This document shows positions 28,119-64,000 of a DNA stretch of 64,000 nt, piece after piece. Source of the DNA: Rhynchobatus australiae (taxonomy: Eukaryota); NCBI GenBank assembly GCA_034780895.1, contig JAUZTB010000078.1, positions 13,497,214-13,561,213 of the forward strand, given 5' to 3'. The position numbers and the translations under genes are program-made. The notes beneath the pieces are model-generated. The model made no database searches. It saw only the letters and a list, made by a program, of their open reading frames with translations, and was not told the DNA's origin. Numbering within the stretch: the first letter of the stretch is position 1; each line of letters starts with the position of its first letter.

Positions 28119-28176
28119 ATGGCGCCTTGCGGCTACCTGCTACTGCTCAGTTGCATCGTGGGTAACCTACCACTTG
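28119..28176 (+). CDS. Gene 2 exon 1 (signal peptide MAPCGYLLLLSCIVGNLPL)
   Basis: Strong Kozak gagATGG within the CpG island, donor g|gtgagt (phase 1). An in-frame alternative donor g|gtaacc lies at 28161/28162. Confidence 0.8.
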
Positions 28177-34100: not shown

Positions 34101-37100
34101 AACCTTTCCATAGTAAATACAAAAAGAAATATTAATTTAAGGACTTGCCCAGCTCCTGTGGCTCCACACATAGATGACCACATTGATCTTTAAAGGGCCT
34201 TATTCTCTCCCTAGTTGTTCCCTTTTGCTCTTAATACATATGAAATCTCATGGGATTATCCTTTACTTTATCTTTCAAAGCTATCTCATGTCTTCTTTTT
34301 GCCATCCTGATTTCCCTCTTAAGTGNNNNNNNNNNNNNNNNNNNNNNNNNNNNNNNNNNNNNNNNNNNNNNNNNNNNNNNNNNNNNNNNNNNNNNNNNNN
34401 NNNNNNNNNNNNNNNNNNNNNNNNNNNNNNNNNNNNNNNNNNNNNNNNNNNNNNNNNNNNNNNNNNNNNNNNNNNNNNNNNNNNNNNNNNNNNNNNNNNN
34501 NNNNNNNNNNNNNNNNNNNNNNNNNNNNNNNNNNNNNNNNNNNNNNNNNNNNNNNNNNNNNNNNNNNNNNNNNNNNNNNNNNNNNNNNNNNNNNNNNNNN
34601 NNNNNNNNNNNNNNNNNNNNNNNNNNNNNNNNNNNNNNNNNNNNNNNNNNNNNNNNNNNNNNNNNNNNNNNNNNNNNNNNNNNNNNNNNNNNNNNNNNNN
34701 NNNNNNNNNNNNNNNNNNNNNNNNNNNNNNNNNNNNNNNNNNATTTTTAACTAGATTTATGTTTTTGAGTGGCAGGGTCTTCCAGATGTACTGGAAAATA
34801 TCAGTAGCTTTAACATACTTCAGAACTGGGTAGTTTGTTTTCTGTCAAAGTGGTTTGGCCTGACGTGCTCGTATCAACCAAGTTACAAGGTTTTGTTCCT
34901 GGGACGGTCTTGGCTAACTATGTTAGCCATTCAGATTATGAGCTAATAAGTTTGGCACCTGGGTGAAACAACAATGGTTAATGCAGAGTGGGTCCTACTT
35001 GGCAAAACCTGGATCATTACCTCAATATACACATCTCCTGCTACAACCAAAGCTTTCCTCGTGCTCAGCTATGATCTTTGTGATCATCTAGAATTGGTTG
35101 TTCTGACTCAAGCAACAATACAGCTAAGCTGATACTTTTAGCTCAAATGCAGAAAAGTAGAATCGGTAACAGCAACCTCTTTCCTCCTTCACTCTGTGAT
35201 AGGGACACAATCAATAAGCAGAAATGTATTTGTGTCCTCTCTTCAATGAATTTGCGGATCTCTGTTGATGGAATATTTAGCTACAGCTTGCCCAAACAGT
35301 GCACATTGATTACTCAAATTATTGGATGTACTCCCCTGTTGGTAACTAAACCGCCATCCTAATGCTCATTGTGGAAATTTGCACACAAAGATCCAAAAAA
35401 AATGGCAGATTTGGAAGGCACAAGATGCAGCTGGCCTATGTTAGCACTTTCAAGATATACCAGACAATTTCTTAAAATTATAACATTAAAGAAACCCCAG
35501 CAACAAACAAAATGCCAGAACAACTCAATAGGTCAGGGGCAGCATTTATGGAGGGAAATGGACAGTTGACGTTTCAGATTGAGACCCTTCATCAGGATTG
35601 TTTGTTGGTCTAGATTTCCAGCATCTACAGTCTTTTATGTCTCCAAAGAAACTGTCCAAACCAGCTTTTTCTTACAGTTGTATTATGTTTCTGTAAGTTT
35701 TCTTTCTAACAAAGGACATTACAAACTTCTATTTTTAGCTGCCTCCACTTTTGGATGTGTCTATGCCTTGTTTTGTAGGAGATGATCATTTAACATGATT
35801 TATTGAGAATACAAAATGTTAGTAATGGTAGCTGTGAAAGTTAGAAACAAAGGTTTAGTGTCCCACATTTACATGTTTGTAATAATTCCCATACTATGCT
35901 TCATTTCAGCATTTGCTCGTCTAAATAAATGGAGAGCTACACATGAAGAGGACAATCAGAGACAATCTGTTCCAATCTCTATGGTGGAACAAAGAAGTGG
36001 ACACCTTCGCAGACTGCATGGAGGTGAGATAGACTATTACAGTCAAACAATAGTGAATGAAGCTTTACATGTGCCCCTGATTAGGTACATGGTAAATGAG
36101 CAGACTGGCATTTTACCTTGGCCATTAGCTTCAAGGCTTCAAAGAGCAGTTCTCCAAATTTAAACCATGTTATGGTAAACCTCAGAAAAGAATACTTGTA
36201 TTTACATAGTGCCTTTCATGACCTTGGACCATTTAAATACTTCTGCTATAGTGAGGCAAGGTTATCTGGGAAACGTAGAATGTAGAATACACAGCACGAA
36301 GTGTGTTGATTGAGAGGTAAATATTAGTCAGGATATGGGAAGAAATCCCTTGCTCAATTAGTGTTCTGGGATCCTTTTTCATCAATTTGAGAGGCCGCAC
36401 AACACCTCAATTTAATAGCAACAAATAATCAGCTGGAGGTGCTCAGTGGGTTGAGCAGCATCTGTGGGCGGATGGAATTGTCGATAACTCCTTCCTCCAC
36501 AGATGCTGCTTGACCTGCTGAGCTCTTCCAGCAGATTATTTGTTGCTCCAGATTCCAGCATCTGCAGTTTCTTGTGTCTCCACCTCAATTTAACATCCCA
36601 TCTGGAAGGGAGTACATCTAATAGTGTAAAACTTGCCCATACTGCATTATATTGTTGGCCTAGTTTATGTGCTGAAGCGTCTGCAGTGGGACGTCAGCCC
36701 AGAACCTTCAGACTCAAATTTGAAAATGTCACTGTTAATCTGCAATTGATACCTAGATGGCTCAGTAGGACAGTGTTTCCTCCTGCTTTTCCTTCTCTGT
36801 TCTGCACATGCTGAGCCTTGCTGGTTCCTTTAATCTAGTGCTTAAAACTGCATTCATTAGCTGTGACTTTGAATCAGATATTGAGGTTTGAATCTGCACT
36901 TGACTCTCTGCTTGAATAACTTTCCTGTGGTGTGGAGCCTAAAGTTATTTAAATTCACCATTACATTGAGATTTTTAAATTTTGTATCTCTTGCCATGAA
37001 AACAAATGTTCCATTAGTTTTTTTTTAAACCTTTATGTACTTGGCAGCTATATTTAAAATCTTCTGAATCGGAATCCCAAACATTACCCAACTTTTCCAC

Positions 37101-40100
37101 AAAGAATATTTTTTAATATCATCTAGGAATTACTGTCATTGACCTTTTATTGCCAGTTATTATCATTTCTTTGGTCCTCAGAATTATTCACCTTATCTTA
37201 TCTTTTAAAATCATCTATAAGGTAGGTTCAGAAATCTTGTAGCTGGATGCATATCCTGCATATGTGACCCCAGGTGTCAAGGCCTCTTGCTAGCACTGGG
37301 TCTTAGTTGCTAGTCCATTATTTTGAAAACATTTATCCTCGTGCCTCTAAATACTCAATATTAGTCAGTTATTCAGATTAAACTGCTGGTATATTTTTGT
37401 CTACTTGGTTCAGCTGCTGTAATTTAATTTATCTATGCTTATTATGGCCACAACAAGCTGTTGGAATTTTTCCAAACTACTATCACAGTCATAGTCCCCC
37501 TCCCAGATTTGAAGGATCCCTAATTAAAGTTGATGGTGTGAAGGATTGTGATTATTGAGGGTGTACAGAGAGGAAATGTAGACACAATATCATAGATGCT
37601 TGAACCTGGAGCAAAAATAAACATGGAGGAACTCAGTGGGTCAAACAGTATCTATGGAGGCAAAGAAGTGGTTGACATTTCAGGTCGAGACCTTGCATCA
37701 GGACTGAGAACATAGAAGGAAGATAGCTAGTACACGTTGCCTGGACTGGAGAGCATGTTTTATGAGGATAGGTTGAGTGAGCTAGGGCTTTTCTCTTTGG
37801 AGTGAAGGAGGATGAGAGGTGACTTGATAGAGGTGTACCAGATGATAAGAGGCATATATCAAGTGGACAATTAGAGGTGAAAATGGCTCACATGAGGGGG
37901 CACATTTTTAAGGTGATTGGAGGAAAGTATAGGGGGATGTCAGTGGCAAGTTTTTTTTACAGAGAGTGGTGGGTGTGTGGAATGTACTGCTGGCAGAGAA
38001 GGTGGGGGCAGATACATTAGTGGCACTTAAGGGACCCAGGCACATGAATGGTAGAAAAATGGAGAGCTATGTGGGAGAGAAGGCTTAGATAGAGCAGGAT
38101 AAAATATCAGCACAACATCATGGGCCAAAGGGCCTGTACTGTGTTCTAATGTGCTGTGTTCTATACAAGTTTTTTCTAAAAATTAAAAAAGCACGCATTA
38201 TTTCATACTAAGCAAAAGAGAAAATTTCAAATACTTATTTCCTGCAGTTTGTATGAACTACCACAAATATTAAAATCACAAAGCAAAACTTAATTTCCCC
38301 CTCTGCACCAAATTCCTGACTTCACTTCATTTAAGTTCACTCAGTGAGACTGATTTTAAAAATGCATCTTAACTGCATTTTTGTTTGGTTATCATCCAAA
38401 ATGTGTATGATGTTTTTTTGTGCTATTGATAACTTGATCCTATTTATAAAATATTTATAAACAAATATGTAGAAACAAAACATATGTTGTCTTTGAGAAA
38501 GTTATCACAGATAGCTGCCACATTACATGATTTTTAAACTGATATTTTCCTTATTTTAGTCTATTCAAAGAAAGTACTCCCATTTCACAAAGGAGAGCAG
38601 CATAAATACAGCTTAATGCCAGTCATTCGCAGAAGACGATATCCCAATGCTTTTCGTGAGTAGCAAAATGTTACGAATGGAATATTTATTATGTAAAACA
38701 AAAATGGTACCTGCCCATCATAATTTTATGGTAAACAATGATCAGGGTGTGTGGGCAGGGGGTGGTTCTCATGACTTACAAACAAAGCACTGGGACAGAG
38801 ATAGTACTGGGATTATAAAGATGTGAGGTTAATAATTATATTTATGGTGATGGATGATAGCACAGGAGAAATTACACTGTGAGAACAATGACTACTAGAA
38901 AGAGCAAGAAAAACTGATTATAAAGGTGAGGTGGCGAATGGTAGTGGTAATTCATCATTGCGAGTAGCAGAAATAGGGTATCAGCAGTCTTCTTCACTGC
39001 ACTTGCTTTTTTCCATGTTGGAGAAAGAAATTGAGTTGGGTAAAAAAAAGGGCTATCGTCTCATAGTTGCAGTTTCTTGCTATTGTTAGAGACCAGTTTC
39101 ACCATCAACAGAGATTCAAAGGGTGGCATAGGCAACATGGGGACAATGATTGTACTGGCAGTGCAGGAAATACAATGACAAAGCAGATTCTTTATAGTAA
39201 CTAAGCAGACTGGAGGGATATACGGTGATTAGAGAGAGTATGCAGAGGGTAGGAGAAACACACTTTGCAGAATTTTAAAATCCAAACTTGCCAGTAGCTG
39301 CTACTTAATTGACCTCATGTTTTGTAGTTTGTTCATTGTTTTGCTTCAATCTGACCATTTGGCTTTTTTCCTTGACTGTAAATTTCTATTTGACTATTTG
39401 ATTGTTCCAAAATGAATCATAAAATCAGTGTTTTTTTTCATTCTTTGCATCAAGGTCAAATCTGAACTTGATACTTCCAGCATTTTCTGATACTATGGTT
39501 GTAAAATATCTCTTTGCAAATCCTCTAGGCAATAAAGAAGTCATAGTAGATGAAGAACCAACTGGTGGACATAAAGAATATTATTTACCTGTACCTCCAT
39601 CTAGACTTTATCCACATGTATATCAAGGTGTGAAAAAAATTCCAGGATTTCAGTAATGGACTGTACGGTACTAAGGCTTTAGTGATTATATGTGTATGAA
39701 TAAAGAACTCATTCTCAAACTTTAGGGTAAGAAATAACTTGCATTTCTAATTGAATCTGAAGAGGATACAGGATGACTTAATAGAGGTCTTTTTGGTAAA
39801 ACAAGATTTTGATAGAGTACATGTGGAGAAGTTTCCACTTATAGGAGAGACCAAAAGCAGCACCAGTAATATAAGATCATGGAATCAGTCATAGCATAGA
39901 GGGCGATCATTTGCTCATCAGTTAGTGTTCTTTATAAGAGTTTAATCATTACTCCCATTCCTACCTTAACCTTAACTCATGGTATTTTCCTCTTCCAGTA
40001 TCTGTCCATCTCCTTTTTAAAAGTTATGATTAAATCTACTGCTCTAACTTCTCAGACAGTCCATTCCAGATTACTGTAGCACTCTGCAATTCACCTCTTC

Positions 40101-43100
40101 TTCTTTAGCCAGTTATCATACATATATAGACATAATGACACTCAAAACTTTTTCTCCTTATTTACTCATTCAAAATCCTTAAGCTTTAAATGCTCCACAT
40201 CTCTCTATGATGTGCGAAGAATCCCAGAGTTGTACTTTCTCTGTGTAACAGAAGTTCTACATCCCTGGCACCATTCTGGTAAATCCATTCTGTACCCTAA
40301 AGTTCTCAATTGTAAAGGAAACTAAAACTAGGAACCGTAAGTTTAAGATAGTTATAAAGCCATCTTTTATCCAGAGAGTGGTTAGAATGTGGAACTTAGT
40401 ATCTATCTCTTTGTCCAAACCTTTGTTTATATACCCTAAAACAATGTCAATANNNNNNNNNNNNNNNNNNNNNNNNTCTTTGCTGCATTAAAGTGATTTG
40501 TAAAGTTGCTGCTATGAGTGCCCATTGTTCTGTTTGATGTGTCCTGAATTGTTAAATTCATGCAGATTCTTAACTTGGAACTGGATTGATACTTTTCCTG
40601 TTAACTGTAATATTTGTTGAATCAAAGACAAGTCAACAACCATTTAACAAGATTGCATCAGGCAATGTTGATCTTATTCACATATTACTATCTCAGAACT
40701 TGACTATGCACTTGAGAACTTTATCAGGAGTCACTCTTGCACTTTCTAATGGATGGCTGTTTAATGTTATACTTCTTTCCTCTGTCTTGGGGATTAAAAT
40801 TATGTTGAAATATACTTCAAAATATAAATTAATTGTGGTTTGATGAGTTGTGACATAATTCTACATAACAGTATCAATGGCATTTATATAGCACCCTTAA
40901 TGTTGCAAAATGTTAGATGCATTTCACAGAAGCAAAACCAGAACTTGGCACTCAGCTACATGGGGAGAGATTCAGAGAGAGACTAAAGATGTAGGTTTTA
41001 AGGAGAGAGATTGTCCAAACAAGTGCCTGCATTAAACACCAAAAACTCAAATCTGGAAACTCCATTTCAGTTCTGAGACAGAAAAGCAAAATAGAGGAAA
41101 GGATTAAGTAAACTGCAGAAAAGTTCACCTGAGTTTCATAATATTTATTTTTAGATCCAGTTCATCACAGCGAAGAGGAAATTATCAGAGGTGGACACAG
41201 GGATGTTATAATTCCTGAACCTGAATTTGGAGTCCCTTCTCAAATATATCAAGGTTTGAAAATAAATATTCTCTAGCATTTGTTCTCTAGCATTTTCTCT
41301 CGCATAGTGACTTTGAAAATTGATGGAAAGTGGAAGATTTGAGAATGTTACCTTAACCTTTTTAGGCCTGTTACTCGGAAAATCTAACCAAAAAAGTAGA
41401 AGAAAGAATAGGTATCATGCCTCTCCAGAATAAATCCTGATTGTGGTTATTTTCACTCTTAGCAATTGAGGGTAGAAAATAAAGATGTGCACATGTACTC
41501 TTAAATAAAATGAAAATAACTAATGACCATTAAATCTAATTTGAAATCATCAATAAGACATCTGTTTCAGTGCAAGGCTTCGTCCATTGTAAATTGAAAT
41601 CAACCCAAAAATCAGTTAACACAATTGCAGTAGAGAACTGGGTGCTTTTATCCTGAAACCAGTTCAACCACATTTATAGCAATTAACAAAATGCTTAATA
41701 GCCACCAAGTCACAGTTGAATCATGATTTGAAGTGCATTATTGCCAACCACACACTTCAGAAATGGACGTCTAAGTGTCTAATCACTATTTGCACGATGG
41801 CTGAAGGGTCTGAAGCTTTTGTAGCAGCATGGAAATCATCCAAAACAAAACTGTGCTAAACTGTTTCCCAAATGTTCAATGTTTTCAGCCCTGAGATGAA
41901 CAGTGCAAATGGTGTGTTGAAACACCTGAAAGGTATATAGCTATACTGATTGATTACAGCCCTATTTAATTACACTGATGCAAGGTCAGATTATAGTCTC
42001 CAATTATGAAAATACCTGTTCTTTAGTTTCAAACATTTGATGAAATTACTGTTTGGGATTATTATGGAATTAAACCAAATGTAAAGCAAATAAGATAAAG
42101 CAATTTAGATTTCATACTAAAAACAACTATCTTAAGATTTCCAGAACTATATCAATTTGTGAGCTAATATTTATTTTCTTTTGATACAGGGCTGAAAAAA
42201 GCTTTAAATATCTACTGCCTACAGCCTACAGCATCAGAATTAAATCTGACATTTTCTATATCAACTCTTTTTGACATCCGGTGGGGACTGCTTTTCTGAG
42301 TTTCAAACCAGCTAAGGAGCATTAGGCCTTTCTTTGGCACTGTGCCCTACTGTGAGACACAGTTCAATTCAACATAATGTGNNNNNNNNNNNNNNNNNNN
42401 NNNNNNNNNNNNNNNNNNNNNNNNNNNNNNNNNNNNNNNNNNNNNNNNNNNNNNNNNNNNNNNNNNNNNNNNNNNNNNNNNGAAGGAAAAATGGTTCCAA
42501 AGACACACATCTTTACTAATAATAGAAGATTTCAGCATATATTATTGTCTGCATCACTTGAAAGTGCTCTTTGGTGAGAATATTGTGATGCTAGCCATGT
42601 GAAAATATCTCATGTTGGTGACCTTGTGGAGGTAACTCTGAAGTGACTATGGAGGATTTTCATTTGTTAGCCAAATGTACATTTTTCAGAAAAAGTTATT
42701 AGATAATAATCATGGACAAGCATCTGATTTTGGGAAAACTTGGAAGTTTTCAACTTGCCATCCAAGCATAAAATTAAACTGGAGATCAGACACCTGATGT
42801 GGGAACTCTTTTTGTTTCATTTCCATTGGGTTCAGTTCAGAGTAATACATACTGTTTCCATAACTGTAGTGCAGTTACTTAGCACATCATACTTATCAAA
42901 TCTGAAACATATCTGAATGCTCAGTCCCATTCCAGGTGGTACATTAATGCACTGAGCTATTGGTGAGTATCATGACATTTCTGAATGAATCTGTGCGTTA
43001 ACTGCAGTTTACTGTGCAGACCAACATCCATTGAACCCAGGAACCCAAGAGCTCATAAGGAAAGTGCTTCTCTTAGTTTGAGAATGAAGCCTGTGCATTC

Positions 43101-46100
43101 CTGGATTTCAATATCCACAGACTAGCTAGGCCACCTCAGAATGTGTGCTCCATATTGAAAGTTGTATTTTTCTGTAGAATTGTCCTGAAGTAGTGTAATG
43201 GCTTTTGTAATTGGTGAATGGGACGTGATTTACGCTTCCCAGTGGTTATTGAGTTTCTTTAGTAGGTAGTGGTGAAATTGGATTTTATAGAAAGCTGAGA
43301 CTAGATGCAAAGGGAAGGGAAGAAATGAAATGGAATGTGAAATAGTGCATTGCAGGCTAATGTACAACAAGTGATTGGTGTACTTATGTAAACAAAGTGA
43401 ATCTTAAAAAGCTATGAAGGACAATAGGAGAAACTAAAAACCAAGATAGTTATAATGAGCCTAAAAGTAGACAGTCTCTGAAAAAGAAATCTCTGTAAAG
43501 AAGACATGAAGGAGTGAAAAAGGACTTTGCAAGAGGCATTGTCTACTACTGCAATGCGTAGGATAATATTTCTTGGAATCTGCTGTTTGTGGAAGTACAA
43601 TACCTTTACCAATTACAGCATTTAGCATAACTCCAACCCATGTTGAGTAAAACATAAAATATAATTCTTAAGGGGTACACTGACAAAAACTACTATTTGC
43701 TGCTTTTTGTGTAAATTAAGATATGTATAAGATATCTTTATTAGTCACACGTACATTGAAACACACAGTGAAATACATCGTTTGCGTAGAGTGTTCACCC
43801 TGCAAGTGTTGCCACATTTCCAGTGCCAACATAGCATGCCCACAACTTCCTAACCTATATGTCTTTGGAATGTGGGAGGAAACTGGAGCACCCAGAGGAA
43901 ACCCACACAGACATGGGGAGAATGTACAAACTCCTTACAATCAGTGGCCAGAATTGAACCTGGGTTGCTGGTGCTGTAATAGTAGTGTAGTATAGTTAAT
44001 TGCTACACTACTGTACCTGCCATGCACATCAGACATCTTTGCCAGGGACTTACTTAGACACAGTTATCAAGGTACTAAACATCAAAATGGTGTATACTTG
44101 GAGGGATGTTAGGATATAACATTGTATTTTTCACCTTCAGTTGTAGCCAATTATTTGCTATTGCAATTCTAGTTTTTGTAGAACTATTTCTAAAGTCCCA
44201 TTTTGTTTCCTAAATATCCAGTTTGGGAAAGTTGTTTTATTGAAATTCCTCCTTTTATTCAAATATTGTGAATGGGAGTCTTTAACGGTATTTGTCACCT
44301 CTTAGCCAGATAGTTGTCTCACTCTGATGTGGTTTGGTGGACCCAAAACTAGATTGACCTGTTTTTCACTGTTACTGTGTTGACATAGAAGGGATTAAAG
44401 ATGAATTTTAGATAGATCATCCAAATAGCATTCTGTCAAGTGAATATTTTGAAAAGTTTGAAGAAATAGATGGTTTAAAGAGTAGTGTGACTTTTTGGAA
44501 TGTCAGATTTCTGGAGTTATTAATCAAAAAAAGATTTTAAGGATTGGAAAGAAAATGACATTTAGGATAAGAAACTAAGGCATGGAAACAAGAGAGCCAA
44601 TATTGTTGAAGTTTGTGGGAGAGTCGCAAAATCCCACATACAGACTGCTTGTTGAAAACTGAAGATAATTACAAGGCAAAGAAAATGTGGATAGCTGATT
44701 GATACAGAAATCATTGGACTGGATTGTTCAACTAGCTGGTGCTTCTATGGAGAATTGCTGGCTAGCTGCAGTAGCTGGATTAGCTCATTCCTGACTTCCA
44801 CAGCTCATTAAATTGTGGAAGTCAGGAATGTGCTGCAAATCAGATGCCAACACATCTGACCTCCCACCCAGCCACTGGACTCAGCATTGTCCAGGAACAG
44901 AACTCTGTCGTAAGCTGAGGGCCAGATACATTTCATTACTGTCCCCAGCCATGGTTTGCACGTGTAGTGTGAGCCCATTCATTTGGATGGGGTCAGCATC
45001 CAATATTAAGATGCTTTTTTTTACTCGGTTCTTGTGTTCTTAATTTCTATAACAGGTGTGCTTTAAGTAATATACTAATTTTTTATTATTTCAAATAACT
45101 TAAATCTGAGGCATGTAGAAACAGTTAGAAAGGCCTTTGACTGCATTGGTGTTAAAAAACCTTCAAGACAGTCCAGAGGCAGGATTTTCCTTCTGAGGCC
45201 TTGCTGCAATTGTGGATTGTTCTGCTTTGCAAGATGACTATAGCACCATGGTCTTAACATGCAGGGCCGCAGAAGGTTAATCAGCTGTGGAAATAGAGCA
45301 GGACAGAGGACAAGGAATAAGTCAAATCAAGCGTAATCTGACCTATTACCTCTTTGAAAGGTTCCAAAGCAAATCGCAGAAGTGATTCAAATGGCCCAGT
45401 GCAGACATTCCTAGTTAGGAAGCCAAAGGGTAAAGACAAAACTGTGTGTATGTTGCATTAATTCTTTAGGTATAACACATTTTATATTTTCAAAACTTAG
45501 TAATTTGTAAGTGACAATTCTTCAGTTTTATTTTTAGATGTACAAACATTAGGGAAATAAAAGTTGTATGTTAAGCATTGGTTTCTGTTGCTTTAATTTA
45601 TTTATGTTTCCGTTTGTGCTTCCGGTGTTTGGAGTTTAACCAAGGTTCCATTTATGTATGCATCATATATTAGAGTTGACTTAGAAAGTGTATCATTCTG
45701 TCAATTGTACTCAGATTTTTTAATTGAACACTTGGCAAAGAGGCAAGCTATATTAGCAGAATTAAAGTAGGCTGCAGCGCATTAAAGTGAAGGTTGGGCA
45801 AGGTTTCATAATGGTCTGAACCAGCTCACGTTCCAATTAAAGGATGAACATTCCAATGCTTGGTGTATGTTTTCTTCACAAAGAAGGGAAGAACTGACAC
45901 TGATATAAATACTTGGCCACCGCACACCAGTTAAATTATGGTAAATTTTTAGACATACAACTAGTTTCTGTATCACTTTGGTATGTGGTATTTATACATG
46001 GGGGTTAAAACAAAAAGGAGCAATGTTGGATTGTAATCAATAAATGTGATCTTTCTCATTTGTTTTGAGTTCACCCTGAGCATACAAAGCCACATGTAGA

Positions 46101-49100
46101 TCAGAGTTTTCTCGTCATATTAAGTTTTTTGATTCTTCAGTTTGTGATTTGTGTTGTGCCCCCTCATCAATGAACACAGGTCATTAACAAAGTTCAAAAG
46201 ATTCAAGGCTATCAAATGGTTTGATTTATCTGATTTTATCAGTGTGTTTTATTGGGTAGTTTTATGGATCATCATTTTTAATCAAAAGAAGATATCCCTT
46301 TTAATTGCCAATATAAGATTAATGAAAACAGTGTTCTGGGCCTAAATGTGTGTTGTATCACATGCAACAATGCTAACCATAACTCATACTTACACATGGG
46401 CCATTAACTTAAATGAACTATTGATGTTAACCATATAATGGCAATTGAAACTTGAGGGAGGATTGTTATTGTCAAGTTTGGAGTGGTAAAACTACCCAGT
46501 GGCTCAATTGATATGCACCAGACATTCTTGATCTGGGCTGAGTTAAATAATTACAGACAGGGTCAACAACCAATTTCTAAGGGGAAAATGAGTCGGGTTC
46601 CACATTCCTGCTTGCTACCCAGAGATTAAATCAGGAAATTGAAAATGTAATTTGTAATCATAATATTAGATTAAATCATGAAGTCCACGTGGACATTTTA
46701 ATCAGGTGCTTGCATGACTTTAGTGCCTATGGAATTACAAATTGCCTATTGTGAAAAAGGGGGGAACCTCATAAGCCAGGTTGAACCATGAGATTTAACT
46801 TCTAGTTACTCAGTTATAATGCATCATTGTTATTGTCATGAGACCTATTATTGGGTTGTCAGTGTCATACTAGGATTATTATCTTTCACATTCATTAATC
46901 CTGCAACATCACATGAAATTTTCCTATACATTTATTTTATACCCGTCATTCTATTGTAACCTGATTTTCTTTTTTTCTTTTGTACCTTACTCCTGATGCC
47001 TTTTTTCACTGGTCAAGACAGTGGAATTATCCAGCCCATGAACATCTTAGCAAAAAAGCATTCATGTCATTCTTTGACTGGAAGTGCAAGATACAGGTTT
47101 TCTTTTCTCAAACACTTTTCCTTACCATAGCAGATATACTGAGAACTAACAAGCTCATTGTAAAATCATACTGTGATAGAGAATGAAAGTGTGTAGATGC
47201 ACACAGTTAAAAAAGTGAGAAGTACAATAATCCCCTGGGCATTGTCATTGAGTGGTATGTGAGAGGAAACCTTGATAAATGTAACAAATCTTAATGGTAC
47301 AGTTATCAAATAATTTCATTTCAGATTCAAAAGAAGACCTTGTATGGGACTTGGATGGTGAAAGCAGAAGGCAATTTATGAACAAAGTGCCACATTATGA
47401 ATCATTTGAAGAAATGTTTTCAGGTGTGAAAAGTAATTATAGACAAAGAGATACCAAGGGCTAATTCCTTTCCCTGTGGTTTTTTGTAGAAGTGCAACAA
47501 TTTATTTAGTACAGCTTCCCAATGTTGCACCTGCTCCTCAACCAGCCAGTTTAAAATAGCAAGCAAATAAATAGCATCTGGGGAAATTACTGACTTAAAT
47601 TTGCATATAAGATTATAAAGAGCCGATGAACACAAACCTATCAACGTAGCATATTATTCTGCACATAAATGATCCTGAAGACTTGTTAATGTCACAATGC
47701 ATTCTAGCAGGAATTTATACAATGCTCCTCAAGTAGATGAGCACTTTCAGGACATTGACACTGAATGGGAAATCTTAGGAATAAAGACCTACCTGAAAGG
47801 ATTAGCTTTTTAAAATGGTTTTGAAGCTAAAGAGAAAGCTATGGTGAAGTTGTTTGGGGATTGAGAAGTAATGCAGAAAGATTTATGATTTTGGAGGAGT
47901 GGGGCAAACCAGTAATGTTTAAGAGTCAGTATAAAACATAGAATGTGACCTGGCGGGAGGAGCTGGAGAATATTTTTCACCAGGGGAACAAAAGAACAAA
48001 ACTTCTGAAATAAATTTATTTAGATACAGAGAGCTAGTGAGATATGCACAGCAGAAGTGGATATTTGTAGGAGAAAACTTAAAACATGAAAGCTATGTAA
48101 ATTTCAGCATCAACAATCAGCATGGAAGTTGATGGGTTTGTTTCCAGGAGCACATTGATTCTGTTAAAAGCATCATGGATACTGTCTTGTTAAGCTAATT
48201 GTTGGCTTATCTAAACCGTGAGGGAATTTGGTGTCAGTCAGATGGAGAGTGCAGCAACTGACCCAGATTAGGTGGTTCTTGCAGAGTGGAACCGTTGAAG
48301 GGTGTGAAAGATAAACATTTGTCTCAAATGAGCGAGAGAAGTGATAAGTAAAAAGGAAGCACTAAATACAGTGGTCTGCATGAGCAACCTTTTGGGTGTT
48401 GGTACAAAAAACCACTTGAGATTTAATGAATGCGTTGTTGATAAATGCAATGTTAAACTATATAAGGAAAGTCCAGTTCCAGCTCCAACCAAGTTATTCA
48501 TTGTTTATTTTGGCACAACTTTAAGGTATATCGCTACTGTGTGGATTGTAATATGTGATGAAAAGATATAGCCAGAAACATGAGATCTTGGAAGTGCACT
48601 TTCCAGCAGGCTCTGACTTCTTACTGCTCTTGAACTCTCCTATATTCCTGGTTCTTGGCTCCATTCTTTCCTCCTTGGGATGTTTGAGCCATATATGGTA
48701 TAATAGTGCTGAAGAATCCACATCGTGATAGTAGTTATCAGATCTCCTGTATGTGATATTTGTTCTTCCAGCTATATTTCTTTTCAGACCTTGACCTTCC
48801 AAGTGCTGATTTGTCCCCTTGAGTTATGAGGGTGCTTTCAGTCCAAAAATGTCTTGGATTGATAATTTATGAGCTTCTGGATATCATGGTCATTCTTATC
48901 AGACCATTCTTGGTGTTCTCTCGTAGAGCAACAAACGGTTCTTTGCAGGTGCTAATTAAAGTGACCTTCAGAAAGACCAGGTATTTTGGACATTCTGTAA
49001 CTCCTATAGATTGGAAATCTTCAGGTTGACTTTTCAGGTCAACTGAATAGAGCATTCTTTGTGGTGTCTGTGATATTGATGCTTGTGTAGCAGCTTTTCT

Positions 49101-52100: not shown

Positions 52101-55100
52101 NNNNNNNNNNNNNNNNNNNNNNNNNNNNNNNNNNNNNNNNNNNNNNNNNNNNNNNNNNNNNNNNNNNNNNNNNNNNNNNNNNNNNNCACATAAGACAGCA
52201 GTCATTTGATATGAGTAAACAAAAATCACATAGCCTGTGAGTAAATAGGTACTATGATCATTTTTGTGCACTTGTCTCTGAAGTGGGACAATTTACCCAC
52301 AACCTACTGATTTGAGGCAAGAAGGCAGCACACTGAACAATGGCTGACATATTGTATCATAGATGTGTTTGAATTTCGTGTTACATTATTGAAAATATGT
52401 ACATGCTTTGCTCATTCAGTGGGGAAGCTTTAGTTTTACCATGGTGGAATTGTTTTTACAGAATGAACATTTATGAAATTGTTCATTACTTGGTTTCAGT
52501 TCAGGTTGTTAGAGTTGGCTGTTGCTGAGCAGCTTGCTGATTACCATCTTGTAAAAAGAAATCCTGTGTGGAGGATAAATCATTTAATATGTTGTGTTAA
52601 TGGCTACATGCAGTGATATTTGAGAAAATGTTTGCACCATAGAAAATATTAATTTGCTCGTTTACAACAATATCACTCTCTACAGAGCTTTTCCTCTCCA
52701 AAAGTTTCATTTAAACATGGTGGTTGAGATTATGCCTCATCATGACCTCATCCAAAAGCTAGGCAAGCTAGGACTTTCATTGCACCCTGGTAATATGACA
52801 ATAAACTAATTTGATTCTGATGGCACTTCTGACAGTATACCAGTAGGGCATTATCTGTGATCTTATGCTCAAATCTCTTGAGAGAGAGACTTGACCTCAT
52901 AATCTGTGAATTTATTGCAATATCATCTGGGAACCAAATCTGAGAGTGGAGGTATAAAACTAAGGTAGAAATAATAGCATTTGGGGTTTTAAAATTATGG
53001 TTTTCACGAGAAAAGATTTAGTATTAAATTAAATACAAACAAATTGTTAGAAATGCTTAACAGGCCAGTTTGCAAGTGCAGAAAGAGAAAGAAAGAAAAT
53101 TTGATAAAGTTAATGTTTCAGGTCAGTAACCTTTCTACAATCAGAGAACTTCTGATGAAAATAGAACCAGGCTGGCATCTTCAGTTGGTAAAGTCAATTT
53201 AACCAACCTTTGTACAAAACAATATTAACTAATAGGCATATAATTTGAAGCCAGATCTTTATGTAAGTGAATAAANNNNNNNNNNNNNNNNNNNNNNNNN
53301 NNNNNNNNNNNNNNNNNNNNNNNNNNNNNNNNNNNNNNNNNNNNNNNNNNNNNNNNNNNNNNNNNNNNNNNNNNNAATACAGAGTAAAGTGTCACAGCTA
53401 CAGAGAAGTGCAGTGCAGGTAGAGAATAAGGTGCAAGGTCACAACAAGGTAGATTGTGAGGTCAAATATCCCAAGCAGAAGCCTCATGACCAGTTCTCCA
53501 GTGAACAGGAAGTGTGGTAAAGCTAAGAATCTTTAATCCAATGTACATTAAATAAATAATCCTAGATTGCAAGGACTGGTCTCATTGTCGCTAATACCAC
53601 ATTTCACTTGCATTGACAAAACTAAAAATCCATCATGGTTAATGAGATGCCTCACAGCCTATTTGAAGGCTGGATCCTCTGAACATCTACTTATAATTAG
53701 TGCAGAGATGCCTTTTGCATTCCATCAATGGAGGCTGTACCGTGATTGAATTTACTAATTCCATTATCTCATGAAGTAGCTGAAGCTTTGCCTAATTCTT
53801 TGCCCCAATCAAGAAATCGTCACAAGGTGAATATGGATGTTGTCATTCAATCCGACTGTTTCAAGCAGTCAATCTCAGAAAGTCTGTTTTGTAGCCATGA
53901 TCAACACAATGAATTTGAATTTGGAATCAGCTTTGAAGTCATGGTACCCACCAATGGCTTCATAGTAAGCTGTTCCAAAGATCGAGCAATAACTATGGCA
54001 TGGAATACAGTACCTGGATTCAAGACTCAATGTCTCAATAAACCTGGAAGGTTAAGAGGTAATCAGGATTTCCTGATTAAGTTACAACATTCTAGAGCAT
54101 TTCCAGGCATATCTGATTTCATTCTTAAAAATAAAAGACAGATTATGTGCCTTAACAAGATCTAGGAGCTCTTCATCTTTTGAATTTGCTGAACTTTACA
54201 TTTGGATTTAATAGAACAATCTGTCCAACCAAGCAGTCAAAATGAGTTCTCCAAGCTATGGCAACATTTTAACATTCAGTCGCTAAAAACAAGGTTTCTG
54301 TGCAAGTCCAGTCTTTGCTTTAATATTCTAAAATAATGTTAACAGTGCATATTTTAATTATTATGAAAATTGTTGGAAAATGTGTGCCTTCTTTATTATC
54401 CTTTCCACTTGTATTGCCACTTTCAGGGAGCTGTGGACTTCGACCCCAAGATTTCTTTGTATGTTAATGCTCCAAAGGGTCCTGCCATTTACTGCATACT
54501 TTCTTCTTGTATTCGATCTCCCAAAATGCAACGCCTCACACTTGTCCAGATTGAACTCCATCTGCCATTTTTCCATCCAAATTTCCGCCTGATCTATATC
54601 CTACTGTATTCTTTGACAACCTTCCTTGTTATCCACAACTCTGCTGATTTTCATGTTGTCTGCAAACTTACCAATCACCCCACCTATGTTTTTATACAAG
54701 TAATTAATATATATTACAAACAATAGAGGTCCCAGCACTGCTCCTTGCAGAACACCACTGGTCACAGACTTCCAGTTCTCTATGACCATATTAAGCCAAT
54801 TTCATATCCAATTTACTAACTCATGGTGGATTCCATGTGGTTTATGGAATTGAATTATTAAAAAACTATAATTGTTTATTTGGTATTTAAAGCATTATTA
54901 GAATTTAGTCAAAGCACACACAAACACACCCTGATGTGTTTAGTAGGTCCAGCATTTTGAATTTTTTTCCAGATTTCAACCACCTACAATTCTTTGCATA
55001 TCTGGTTATTGCTGTGTAGTATTAAAACTTTGATAGTTGTTCAAACTAAATGTTCCCTTGTTTTCCAGACTTAGAAGATGAAAAGATCAAGCAAGCTAAT

Positions 55101-58100
55101 AAGCACCACAATGCTGGTCATGCACTCAATCATGAACATGAACATGAACACGAACATAACCATGAACATGAACACAAGCCAACTGTTAATCGGGATGATT
55201 ATTGGATTATTGGGCAAAGACGCTTCAGAATAATCGTGCTTAGTAAGTGGTGAATGTACTGGAGGCTATGAAGACCATATAGTTCCACCAATGCTCATTA
55301 AGTTTATTTAGTGAGTCACTGACCATTACAGAGTAGGAAGCTCCTAGGTTTCAAATTAGAGTTAACATTGGGTCCCACCATACACCAATATAAGGCCATA
55401 TACTGGGGCCTCAGGTTCCAAAGAGGAGGAGTTAATAAAAATGTTCTCTCAACATGACTTTACTTGTGCTTTACCATCATCAAGTAAATACAATTACCTT
55501 TGCAGGTAATGTATTGGCTGCAAAGGTAATTGTATTTTTCTCCCGTTGTTGACACCCTCCAAGGCTTTGCTGCTGTAAATCTGAATCCATATTCCAGCAC
55601 AGCTCCCCAGCAAAGACTTGCCTGCTCAGCTTCCACATGTAAATGACTCCACGTTGGTAACTTCCTGTGGAGGGTGGACGAGCCACCTTGCCAGCAGTTC
55701 CCATGACAAAATCTTGACAGTTTGGAAGCATTCCTTAGATCTCCAAGAGAAAATCACCAAACATTACTCCATTATGAAAGATTACACTGGGTGCTAAGGA
55801 GATCTTACCCTTTCCTCCACAATTACAACTTTCATCTGAAATGGCTCTAGTGAACTGGTAAAAATATAATATTGGTAATATTAAAGAACTAATATATAGT
55901 TTACAAGTAAAACATATCCCTTTTAGGCAAAATAGTAAAAATAAAGTTGTCCATCCATGGCTATCAAGAAAAATTAACTATAACATTCGATCAAAGGCTT
56001 GTAATGTTCCCAAAGAAGCAGTTAGTGTGAGGATTAGGAAAAGTTCAGCTTAATTAATGGAGTACCAAGGCATTGATAGGAACAGGGAGGTAGAATATGA
56101 GGATGGGCTAAGGGGAAACACANNNNNNNNNNNNNNNNNNNNNNNNNNNNNNNNNNNNNNNNNNNNNNNNNNNNNNNNNNNNNNNNNNNNNNNNNNNNNN
56201 NNNNNNNNNNNNNNNNNNNNNNATGAGGATGGGCTAAGGGGAAACACAAAAGTGGAATGTAAGACTTTCTTTAGAGATTTTATATAATATTTTGCTTTTT
56301 ATAAAATATTAGTTAAAATTAAAGTGAGTCCTTTACACAAGAGACAGGAGAAATTATACTGGGTATAAAGAAATGTCAGAGAAATTAAACAAATATTTTG
56401 TGCCTATCTTCTTGAAAGAAGAGACAAAAATCCTCCAGAAATAGCAGAGAAAGGTGCCTAGATTGAATGAGGAGTTCAAAGATATTGACATCAGTGAAAG
56501 ATTAATCAGTGAAAGGTTAATATAGAAGAAATTAATGGGATTGAAAAGTAACAAATTTGCAGGATCTGATCACCTGCATCTCAGGGTTTTAAAGAAGGCA
56601 GATATGGAGACGGTGGATGCAGTAGCTGTCATCTTACAAAATTTTGCAACTGCATAATGGTTCACACAGATGGAAAGGTGGCAAATGTAACCCCGCTATT
56701 TAACAATGGAGGAAGAGAGAAAGCTATGAATTATAAGACGGATTAGAACATAGAATAGTGTAGCACGATCAGGCCTCTTGGCCCACGGTGTCTGTACCAA
56801 CAATGATGCCAAATTAAACTAATCCCATCTTTCTACACATGACCTATATCCCTCCATCCTGTGCCTGTTCATGTGCCTGTCTAAATGCCTCTTAAATTTT
56901 GCTATTGTATCTGTTTCTACCACCTCCCATGGCAATGCATTCCAGGCACTGAAACTCTGATCACCTGACCAAGCTCATTTCCTAATACAAGGTCTCATAT
57001 GGCCCCTTCCTCACTGCCTCACTGGATGATCTCTCCAGGATGTCCTCCCTAAGTACAGCTGTGACATTCTCCCTAATCAGTGGTGCAACTCCCCCACCTC
57101 TTTTACTTCCATCTCTATTGTGTCTGAAACATCTAAACCCTGGAACATTGAACTGCAAATCCTGCCCCTCTCTCAGCCAAGGTCTCTGTAATGGTGACAA
57201 TGTTGTCATTCCATGTACTAATCCATGATCTAAGTTCATCTGCCTTACCTGTAAATACAGACATTTCAGCCAATCAGTCCCACCATGCTCATTAACCTGG
57301 CCCTACCTGTCCCTTCTTTCAGACTCATTTGACCTAATCTACCTTCCACTCAATCTCTCTATCTATTAACCTACTGCTCTGGATCCCACCCTCCTGCTTT
57401 GTTAGTTTAAACACTCCTGAGTAGCAGTAGCAAACCTCCCTGCAAGGATATTCGTGCTCCTCCAATTTAGGTGTAACCCATCCTTGTGATCCCATGTGCC
57501 CTGGAAGAGAGCCCAACGATCCATGTACCTGAAACCCTCCCTACTGCACCAGCTCCTTAGCTACGCATTTAACTACTATCTTCCTATTTCTTGCCTCACT
57601 AGCACATGGTGCAGGAAGTAACTTTGAGATTACAACCCTCTGTCCTGTTTATTAACTTTATACCAATCTCCCTAAATTCACTTTGCAGGACTTGATCTCT
57701 CTTCCTGCCTTTGTCATTAGCATCAATGTGAACCACGATCTCCTGGCCGTTCACCCTCCCGTTTAAGATTGTCCTGTGCTTGCTCGGAGACATCCTTGAC
57801 CCTGGCACCAATCTGTACCCCTGATTGCTATTACTATTGCTTGCTTAGTTCTTGACCTACTCTGCTGTACAACAGAGTCAATTTGGTACCAATGATCTGG
57901 TTGCTGCTGTCATTTTCCCTAAGAGGCTATACCTCCAAACAGAATCCAAAACAGTGTACTTGTTAAAGGGGAGGACGGTCACAAAAGACTCCTGTACCAT
58001 CTGCCTGCTTCTCCTGGTGATTACCCATCCATCTGGCTGAATCTTTGGATAGTGTCCTGTCACTGAAACATACAAAATTCTGACAGGGTAGATGCAAGGT

Positions 58101-61100
58101 TAATGTTTCCACAGGCTGGTGTGTTTAGAACCAGGGCTCATAATCTCACAGTAAGGGGTCAGTGATTCAGATTTGAGGGACAAAAAATTTCTCCAACCAG
58201 GGGATGGCGAATTTTTGGATTCTCTGTCCAAGAGAGTGGGTGATGCTCAGTTGCTGAGTAATTCAAGACAGAAATTGATTAACTTTTTAATATTAAGGTA
58301 ATCAAAGAACATGAGGTTCGTGCAGGAAAATGACACTGAGNNNNNNNNNNNNNNNNNNNNNNNNNNNNNNNNNNNNNNNNNNNNNNNNNNNNNNNNNNNN
58401 NNNNNNNNNNNNNNNNNNNNNNNNNNNNNNNNNNNNNNNNACACTGAGGTAAAAGAATACCTGTGACCTTACTGAATGGTGGAGCATGCACAAAGGGCCA
58501 AAAGTCTACTCCTGCTTCTATTTCTTATGTTCTAATATTGTTGTGTAATATGCACCTTTCATTATTAGCAGTAAAAGATTTGGTTGTTTTCAAGCTGGGT
58601 TATTAATGAGTGACAGTAAAGTTGGAGGTCCATAATTTCACAGTGCTTCTACTCCTGTTTTCTTCAAAAAAGTAATCAAACCCGGACATAGTTGGAAGCT
58701 TAAAATTTATCTCCTACTGTATATAAAGAGAGCACACAGTTGCAACAGCATCTCTACTCTCCTGCTGCTAATGGGAAAGGAGATACTCCTATACAAAGAG
58801 AGGTTTGGAATGATGTACCCAGTCCATCAGCATTAGGTGCATTTGTATCTTTTATAAAGCACCATAATTACTGTTGTGCTAACTCTTTTTTCTTCTTTTT
58901 TTAGTTATTTTAGCAGTTCTCGTTGGTTTTGCTATTTTACTGATACTGGCATGGTTCTTTTTACCAAGAAAGCTTATAAAGAAAATGTAAGTTTTATGTT
59001 GTATACACACAAGATGCTGCAAAATATCTTGAATTATTATCTTGAAAATATCTTGTCACTGCTATGACTCTAAAGGAAAGAGGATTTTTTTTCAAATTTT
59101 AATGATTTGTACAAAAGTAGGGATTAGAAGGGATGGTTTAAAAATGTATTCAGTTAAACTAGAAGGGATGGTTTAAGAATGTATTCAATTAAACATGAAG
59201 TGATGCTTAAAGAAAATGAAGGCTTCATGAGCTTTTCTATGCTGCTCATTGCCTACCTATTCTGCAACCATCTTAGCACTGCTCTTCTACATATTTATGC
59301 CTCACACCATGACAGTATTACACAACGTATGGAGAAAACACAATCATGTTGCAGCTTTTTCTGTGATACACATTGAGCACTACTTAGTATTAATAAACAT
59401 CAGAGTCATTGGCTATGCGCACCGAATTTTGGCAATGCTTTTGTCTTTCACAAGGGCTCATTGTATTAATTTTGCTGAGTAAATTTGCAATGATGGGCAA
59501 TTTTCCGAATGTTCGGTAAATTTATGATTCCTTTAAGATAGGCTATAGAGCAAATGCTGGTAAATGGTACTAAAACAAATAGGTACTTGATGGTCAGTGG
59601 AGACATGATGAGTCAAAGGGCCTGCTTCTGTGCTGTATGGCTCTACAACTCTATATGAGCTGTATGGACACTTTCTACAAATGTGAAAAGCAGCTTGATC
59701 ATCTTTGTGAACAAGTTAAATTGATGTTAGTTGAAGTAATACGATGTGGATATAATGGAATGTTGCAAAATGTTCTTGAATACCCAAATAGTGCAAGCCA
59801 TAATACCCTATAATCTTTCCACATAAACTGTTGGTTGAATGCTGANNNNNNNNNNNNNNNNNNNNNNNNNNNNNNNNNNNNNNNNNNNNNNNNNNNNNNN
59901 NNNNNNNNNNNNNNNNNNNNNNNNNNNNNNNNNNNNNNNNNNNNNCCATTCATTACTTAAAATTTTGCAATGTTGTTGCACCTTATCATATCTCTCAGCA
60001 ACCTAGATCTCTTCTTAAGTTGCCTTGCTTCTTTGGTACCATAAGACCATGTATTGGCCCAATCTTTCCAGGAGAAGTCACTCCATGCACATGACAGAAA
60101 CTGAGGACTGATGTTGGCAGACAGCCTGGAATCATCAGCTTGTTTTCCTGTTTGAAAAAGACCATGACCTTGGAATACTTCCTGTTCTTTTGGTAATCAA
60201 GACCTTTGCCTGTTAAACTTCCTTGAATCTTTTGGCCAACAATGCTGAATTTCTGAAAATTCCACATCTATCAAACACTGTGGAAGGAAAATAATGGCCC
60301 ACCACAGATCACTTGAAAAAAAACAATCCTCTTAATCTTTATACTAGTAGTATCCCTGTGATCAGATCACAAAATGCACCTTTACAGATAATGTAGCACT
60401 TGTAGCATAATTGTCCTCCCTTGAGATTGTAGAACAGACATTCAAAGTAGATGTTGTTTGTTGGAGGTTAACAATTGCTTCCACATTGCAAGGTAATGTG
60501 ATATTACTCTCTAACTTGCTTTCAAACCGGAGTACCCAAGAGTCACTTAGATCAGATACCATTTTGTTTCCAATACCTTCTCTATGCTACACTACACAAA
60601 ATGCTGGAGGAACTCAACGGGTCAGACAACATCAATGGAGTGAAATAAACAGTTGACATTTCAGGTCGAGACCCTCCATCAGGACTGGAAAGGAAGAGGG
60701 GAGAAGCCAGAATAAAAAGGTAGGGGGAGGAGCACAAGCTGGCAGGTGATAGGTGAGTCCAGGTGAGAAGGGGAAGGTAGGTGGGTGCAGGAGGGAGGGA
60801 TGAAATAGAATGATATGAGAAGTTGGTAGGTGGAAGAGGCAAAGGGCTGAAGAAGAAGGAATCCGATAGGAGAGGACAGTAGAATATAAAATAAGAGTTG
60901 GGAACCAGAGGGAGGTGATGGGCATGTCATGAGGGCAGGGGAGGGGAAAGAGAAGGGGTGAGAGGGCCATGGGAATGAGGAAAAACAAAGGGGGGGGAGG
61001 AGAAAACAGAGGAGGGTCGTTACTGGAAGTTAGAGAAATCGATGTTGATGCCATCAGTTTGGAGATTACCAAGATGGAATATGAGGTGTTGCGCCTCCAA

Positions 61101-63909: not shown

Positions 63910-64000
63910 CATTGTAAAGTGAGGTGAGTGATGTGCATCACAGAGATATTTGTAAAAGTGATACTAGGTTCTGCTTCCTCCCAATTCTCACCTTTGTATT

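Follow-up and report, generated by a model that had tools for sequence, protein, structure and literature searches.

Old tandem exon duplicates, likely spliced as optional cassettes, in the predicted ectodomain of an undescribed gene of Rhynchobatus australiae

Introduction

A stretch of 64,000 nucleotides from the genome of the ray Rhynchobatus australiae (assembly GCA_034780895.1, contig JAUZTB010000078.1, positions 13,497,214 to 13,561,213 of the forward strand; from here: the window) contains a gene with four short symmetric exons, exons 3 to 6, located between positions 38560 and 47423. In an earlier note made from the sequence alone, these exons were considered to be tandem copies of one 33-residue repeat from which the ectodomain of a membrane protein is built. 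Here we describe the structure of this gene, the relationship among its exons, and the exon composition of predicted gene models of its orthologs in sharks and rays. These analyses separate a certain pair of duplicates (exons 4 and 5) from a likely third copy (exon 6) and a doubtful member (exon 3).

Gene structure

Exons 3 to 6 are part of a nine-exon open frame of 278 codons that extends from 28119 to ~63909 on the + strand and is interrupted by GT-AG introns. The predicted protein consists of a signal-peptide-like start, an ectodomain, one long hydrophobic helix and a short basic tail of ~13 residues. The ectodomain is encoded by exons 2 to 7, every one of which is phase 1-1, and introns 1 to 7 are all of phase 1. 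As this includes exons 2 and 7, the symmetry of exons extends over the entire ectodomain.

Coding exon 1 (28119..28176) provides the start codon and the predicted signal peptide and ends in phase 1; an in-frame stop is located upstream of the start, and the N-terminal hydrophobic stretch is conserved in the orthologs. Exon 2 (35910..36023, 114 bp) encodes the N-terminal part of the ectodomain, while exon 3 (38560..38655, 96 bp) contains the polybasic sequence RRRR, a predicted proprotein-convertase site. The following three exons have 99 bp each. Exon 4 (39529..39627) encodes a Tyr/Pro module and ends with AG before the intron start GTGTGAAAA; its clear duplicate, exon 5 (41155..41253), ends with AG before GTTTGAAAA, and exon 6 (47325..47423), a conserved cassette with the motif HYES[FL]E, ends with AG before GTGTGAAAA. 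A predicted helix, a His/Glu-rich tract and the beginning of the transmembrane helix are encoded by exon 7 (55069..55242, 174 bp), whereas the transmembrane helix and the start of the basic cytoplasmic tail belong to exon 8 (58905..58986, 82 bp, phase 1-2). Exon 9 (63894..63923) contains the last four codons, the stop codon and a donor that leads to another, untranslated exon beyond the window; the C-terminus encoded by it agrees with the orthologs. The stop codon lies 14 bases upstream of this donor, hence the 3′ untranslated region is spliced. All nine exons are on the + strand.

Relationship among exons 3 to 6

The lengths of 96, 99, 99 and 99 bp, the 1-1 phases and the peptides given for exons 3 to 6 in the earlier note were confirmed, with AG/GT ends and corrected borders. 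Similarity among the four modules, as proposed there, also withstood shuffling, since the four-exon sum-of-pairs score was better than that of the shuffles (p 1.5e-4). In pairwise comparisons across species, corrected for 20 tests, exons 4 and 5 were the sole surviving pair (profile z 4.7 over nine species, p 1e-4), with p < 0.025 in eight of the nine species. At the DNA level 50 of their 96 aligned positions are identical, compared to 30 expected under codon shuffling (p ≤ 1e-4), and in the alignment of exon profiles by hhalign this pair reached a probability of 37.6%, the other nine pairs remaining below 10% each. Judged by the in-register similarity of protein and DNA together with the common length, phase and donor, exons 4 and 5 are with certainty tandem exon duplicates.

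Cross-species similarity was lower for the pairs 3 and 4, 3 and 6, and 4 and 6 (z 2.3–2.5, p ~0.01) and for exons 5 and 6 (z 1.4), and none was found between exons 3 and 5. The DNA of exon 6 resembles that of exon 5 (p 0.005) and exon 4 (p 0.02), at protein z-values of 1.4–2.5, and 11 of the first 18 intron bases after exon 6 are identical to those after exon 4 (p 0.002). The non-consensus donor context reported previously for exons 4 to 6 was found as quoted. The corresponding 11-mer AGGT[G/T]TGAAAA, a pattern chosen after the donors had been seen, has three occurrences in 64 kb (0.17 expected), and these coincide with the donors of exons 4, 5 and 6. A start with GT[G/T]TGA was found in none of 27 donors of neighbouring genes, 24 of which were drawn from a set already filtered for consensus-like donors. 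Moreover, the read-through peptides of three other records are similar to those that the window would yield past the donors of exons 4, 5 and 6, a weak hint that these odd donors may be old. From its DNA similarity and the shared donor, exon 6 is likely the third duplicate.

The position of exon 3 is different. In this species it shares seven of 32 residues with exon 4 (p 3e-4) and 39 of 93 nucleotides (p 0.003). Its membership appears doubtful because the similarity is weak in the eight other species (p 0.02–0.31), exon 5 is not matched, the exon has 35 codons in sharks, and its donor differs from those of exons 4 to 6; if it belongs to the repeat, it would be an older member. A hidden Markov model (HMM) of exons 4 and 5 missed exon 3 (0 of 10 species at p < 0.05) as well as exon 6 (0 of 7). 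With a single pair passing the correction, no similarity between exons 3 and 5 and two exons escaping the HMM, we rejected one 33-residue repeat family spanning exons 3 to 6, and the claim of exon duplication is retained for exons 4 and 5 and likely exon 6. Exon 2 was tried as an additional module (z ≤ 1.9; HMM p < 0.05 in 2 of 10 species) and was not accepted. Exons 4 to 6 encode 99 of the ~227 residues of exons 2 to 7, hence an ectodomain built from the repeat holds for this portion of it.

Further copies, for which the earlier note had suggested an HMM search, were found neither in the window plus 400 kb of flanks (464 kb, N stretches excepted) with the HMM of exons 4 and 5, nor genome-wide by DNA and protein search, nor in the 39 ortholog models. 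The gene is single-copy in its own genome, as a full-length ortholog query matched five exons at the locus; two weak matches elsewhere (E 0.06 and 0.4) correspond to the His-rich and membrane part and contain a stop.

Orthologs and family searches

We obtained 39 ortholog models from 12 named species of sharks and rays, none of which carries a functional name, one being labelled automatically as 'LIM domain-containing protein A-like'. An exon 7 query led to Narcine proteins at 82% identity. A profile of eight sequences searched against 1.84 billion representatives yielded five proteins at E ≤ 0.001. Three are named elasmobranch records, one is a fragment that matches exon 5 of a skate, and the fifth, P0040, is a distant and unplaced relative of 214 residues with the same layout. 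In a word-seeded profile search, all 22 matches down to E 10 were from elasmobranchs. P0040 used as query had no match in the R. australiae genome, which is uninformative. The searches of Pfam (matches inspected at E ≤ 5 and E ≤ 1), PDB sequences and the Atlas yielded no family above cut-off. No publication on the gene was found by locus or accession identifiers or by motif, in a search outside of which lay supplements, which may list loci, and subscription journals. By these searches, the gene represents an undescribed family with a familiar architecture, so far encountered only in sharks, rays and the one unplaced relative P0040, and is apparently restricted to cartilaginous fish.

Exon skipping in ortholog models

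The exon composition of the ortholog models was compared within the eight species that have at least two models. Exon 6 was both present and absent in six of them, namely all six sharks, and exon 5 in four; for exon 2 this was the case in three species and for exons 4 and 7 in one species each. Exon 3 was never optional among these species and occurs in 38 of the 39 models, the exception being a fragment that starts later. Models dropping exon 4, 5, 6 or 5 plus 6 exist, and complete models show six of the eight possible combinations of exons 4 to 6. All three Narcine models lack exons 4 and 5, and exon 6 is absent from the models of both skates, Heptranchias and Hemiscyllium. The in-frame, combinatorial skipping that had been predicted is thereby supported indirectly, through predicted models only, and exons 4, 5 and likely 6 are likely optional splice cassettes. 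Mutually exclusive use of the duplicated exons was rejected, as the longest models in the six sharks hold exons 4, 5 and 6 together. The weak donors had been thought to permit the skipping; this explanation is unspecific, since exons 2 and 7 with their consensus-like donors are dropped as well, so that the weak donors are not shown to be its cause, and exon 4 is rarely dropped. Two read sets covering exons 2 to 5 (35600–43800) were genomic-like, with no exon-joining contigs among the rows listed, and are uninformative on splicing.

Two Cetorhinus models (P0031, P0032) and one from Carcharodon (P0034) lack exon 8 and hence most of the membrane helix, which suggests secreted or differently anchored forms. 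In the Narcine models P0002 and P0003, ~75 residues without a match in the window stand in place of exons 4 and 5. The first part of this insert may resemble the start of a retroelement gag; the insert could have arisen by exonisation of an element or by an error of annotation.

Age and conservation of the modules

Exons 4, 5 and 6 are present in sharks and rays alike, which places the duplications before the split of these two lineages, roughly 250–300 million years ago. Mean pairwise identities were 58, 60 and 59% for exons 4, 5 and 6 (nine, nine and seven species) compared to 52% for exon 2 and 47% for exon 3 (10 species each). Exons 4 to 6 are thus the best kept among exons 2 to 6, each with its own motif conserved across sharks and rays. 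The copies appear to have diverged early from one another and then to have been kept; the fast divergence assumed previously would fit such an early phase, while its continuation since the shark-ray split is unsupported.

P0040 possesses one clear module, which was scored as exon 4, the exon best kept there, and whose end resembles exon 4 as well as exon 5; neither exon 5 nor exon 6 was matched in it. This composition fits an ancestor with one module, or P0040 could be a skipping isoform. Among the 40 of 209 differences listed for organism B over 35600–43800, at least two are located in exon 3, and these two alter residues of the motif aligned in the earlier note.

Predicted protein features

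The structure model (predicted local distance difference test 52, predicted template modelling score 0.20) is unfolded over exons 2 to 6. Helices are confined to the signal, the exon 6/7 junction and the membrane segment, and the last of these is the only one modelled with confidence. The ectodomain is rich in His (6–13%), Glu, Arg and Pro, contains no cysteine in any of 12 proteins and only 5–11% Ser plus Thr. On account of the low Ser/Thr content, a mucin-type stalk protein of the podoplanin or CD164-like kind was rejected. The canonical motif R-x-K/R-R in exon 3 is found in 10 of 13 proteins, P0040 included; the other three keep RKR or RRRQR. HYES[FL]E, an S-x-E site, occurs in all eight proteins that have exon 6, and the number of S-x-E sites per protein is 0–4, with none in three of 13. 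Basic residues are commoner after the helix than before it. This charge bias together with the N-terminal hydrophobic stretch favours a predicted type I topology, and a cytosolic phosphotyrosine adaptor was set aside. The His/Glu tract (55100–55180) varies in length, exon 7 encoding 49–64 residues, with the longest version in Chiloscyllium and the shortest in skates.

Discussion

With moderate confidence we consider the product of the gene to be a disordered type I membrane proprotein that is processed by a convertase, and exons 4, 5 and likely 6 to be old duplicates that likely serve as optional cassettes. After removal of the signal peptide, a furin-type convertase would cleave at the polybasic site, which lies in the constitutive exon 3, and thereby release a peptide of ~60 residues. 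On the membrane-bound remainder, one to three short linear motifs of Tyr/Pro/acidic character would be presented, and below them a His/Glu-rich stretch that is possibly sensitive to pH or metal. Inclusion or skipping of exon 6, most often, and of exon 5 would set the number of motifs and their distance from the membrane, and for exon 6 would also decide whether a conserved S-x-E/tyrosine modification site is present. The splicing choice may in this way tune binding to an extracellular or luminal partner. The role of the basic tail would be limited to anchorage at the inner leaflet or cortex.

Several observations weigh against this reading. The canonical furin motif is missing in three of the 13 proteins, and the structure model was built on only eight sequences, which can itself depress the score. 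With exons 4 and 5 absent in Narcine and exon 6 in skates, Heptranchias and Hemiscyllium, no single module is indispensable. The dropping of exons 2 and 7 as well would fit tolerant splicing noise, and all isoforms stem from gene prediction, which as a rule draws on introns seen in RNA sequencing.

In a somewhat unlikely alternative, the modules could be mere spacer and their skipping tolerated noise, symmetric exons in a disordered stalk being droppable at no cost and minor forms being recorded by annotation pipelines. The uniform phase 1 of all ectodomain introns and the absence of whole modules from the models of some species agree with this, as does the loss of exons 2 and 7. However, each module has kept its own motif in both groups, conservation of the modules exceeds that of exons 2 and 3, exon 6 is optional in six of six sharks with several models, and the odd donors are mirrored in the read-through peptides of three other records. 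A separate question, compatible with the proprotein reading, concerns the identity of the gene, which might be an unrecognisably diverged ortholog of a named single-pass protein of bony vertebrates rather than restricted to one lineage. P0040 demonstrates relatives at much lower identity, the neighbouring genes are conserved, and disordered single-pass proteins generally diverge quickly. We nevertheless regard such an ortholog as unlikely, given that just five proteins reached E ≤ 0.001 among 1.84 billion representatives, three of them named elasmobranch records, and that the word-seeded matches were exclusively elasmobranch.

Two further proposals assign a function. An equatorin-like membrane protein of secretory granules or the acrosome, in which the His/Glu tract and Tyr-rich modules condense or tether a luminal matrix at acid pH, would be in line with the high His content and with the appearance of equatorin clusters in both Atlas feature searches (0.75 and 0.77). 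These scores are within the tool's stated chance range, though, and Pfam gave no match to Afaf (PF15339), so that we consider this proposal improbable. Equatorin, podoplanin, TMEM154 and syndecan, all weak feature neighbours at 0.75–0.77 in that chance range, have in common with the predicted protein a disordered ectodomain and one helix, and podoplanin also a short basic tail, but none of their Pfam families matches this gene. Even less probable, in our view, is an SCPP-like mineral-matrix protein of teeth, denticles or tesserae, acting through shed or transmembrane-less forms with Tyr-rich, acidic S-x-E modules. According to PMC9122587, elasmobranch Scpp proteins start with a signal peptide, contain low-complexity sequence that is Tyr-rich and acidic, carry SxE sites (S-x-E being a putative Fam20C site) and were shaped by local exon duplication, their introns are mostly of phase 0, and their genes derive from and adjoin sparc-L. 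The shark-and-ray protein described here is likewise Tyr-rich and acidic, with duplicated exons, disordered Tyr/Pro/Glu-rich modules and the conserved S-x-E in exon 6, and with exon 8 most of the helix is missing from three lamniform models. In contrast to that description, introns 1 to 7 are all of phase 1, a transmembrane helix is present and the neighbours are unrelated to sparc-L, for which SCPP membership was rejected; moreover, SxE sites are few and in three of 13 proteins absent.

Returning to the cassette-bearing proprotein, symmetric cassette exons in the stalks of type I surface proteins are known from CD46 (STP-A/B/C), CD45 (A/B/C) and the CD44 variant exons, where exons of phase 1-1, located between the signal peptide and the membrane, are included combinatorially and alter stalk length and content. 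Those stalks are Ser/Thr-rich mucins or stand beside folded domains, whereas the present ectodomain is poor in Ser and Thr and has no folded domain; no sequence similarity to these proteins was found by Pfam search. For the convertase step, PIANP/LEDA-1 offers a parallel: according to PMC7577901, PIANP and AJAP1 are type I membrane proteins that bind the sushi domain of GABA-B1a, and PIANP is processed by furin-like convertases. The gene described here has sequence features that would suit a type I topology and a furin-type site. It differs by its tail of ~13 residues, the duplicated cassette modules and the His/Glu tract, and membership in the AJAP1/PIANP family was rejected as AJAP1_PANP_C (PF15298) is absent from the Pfam matches. 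Old tandem exon duplicates have been tied to mutually exclusive alternative splicing in work on tandem duplicated exon substitutions (PMC9741552); unlike in those events, the modules here are usually included together and dropped as cassettes.

The locus provides a dated example of exon duplication turned into what is likely conserved cassette splicing in a disordered ectodomain, and the analysis describes the anatomy of a gene family that is new to the literature searched and apparently restricted to cartilaginous fish. There is no sign of Dscam-like diversity, as at most eight combinations are possible, or of an arms race. A regulated switch would suggest that sharks and rays possess a new system of ligands or adhesion, with three motifs and one cleavage site. 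A yet wider scenario, a surface proprotein exclusive to cartilaginous fish that expanded from one to three modules before the split, with a regulated splice switch, kept since then, that adds or removes distinct, modification-dependent binding motifs, and with a shed N-terminal peptide of 60 residues acting as a separate signal in an elasmobranch-specific tissue, is rather unlikely as a whole.

Genomic neighbourhood and further observations

Directly upstream of the gene and on the same strand, the window contains three exons of a SOUL heme-binding gene (PF04832; 11179–18113, +). Downstream, Pfam matches identify in order a choline transporter-like gene (+), an ILF3-like gene with DZF and dsrm domains (+), a QTRT1-like TGT gene (−) and a uridine kinase gene (+). 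The order SLC44A2-ILF3-QTRT1 matches that of human 19p13.2, a location at which a uridine kinase gene is not known to occur. In the 200 kb upstream, none of 69 candidate exons matched a Pfam family; this is possibly a gene-poor stretch, or genes were missed by the crude exon finder. A GC-rich stretch is located within it near L031:7200-8100.

Some ortholog models deviate at individual exon borders. Exon 1 of the Narcine models ends with a peptide that matches, in another frame, an intron stretch of the window before a second GT (28177–28199), and a 14-base difference would account for this donor shift. Lamniform and Hemiscyllium models have exon 2 longer by five residues via an upstream acceptor; at the corresponding positions of the window (35895–35909), a similar frame is kept and the AG is apparently missing, as read by eye. 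One Leucoraja model has an alternative, longer tail.

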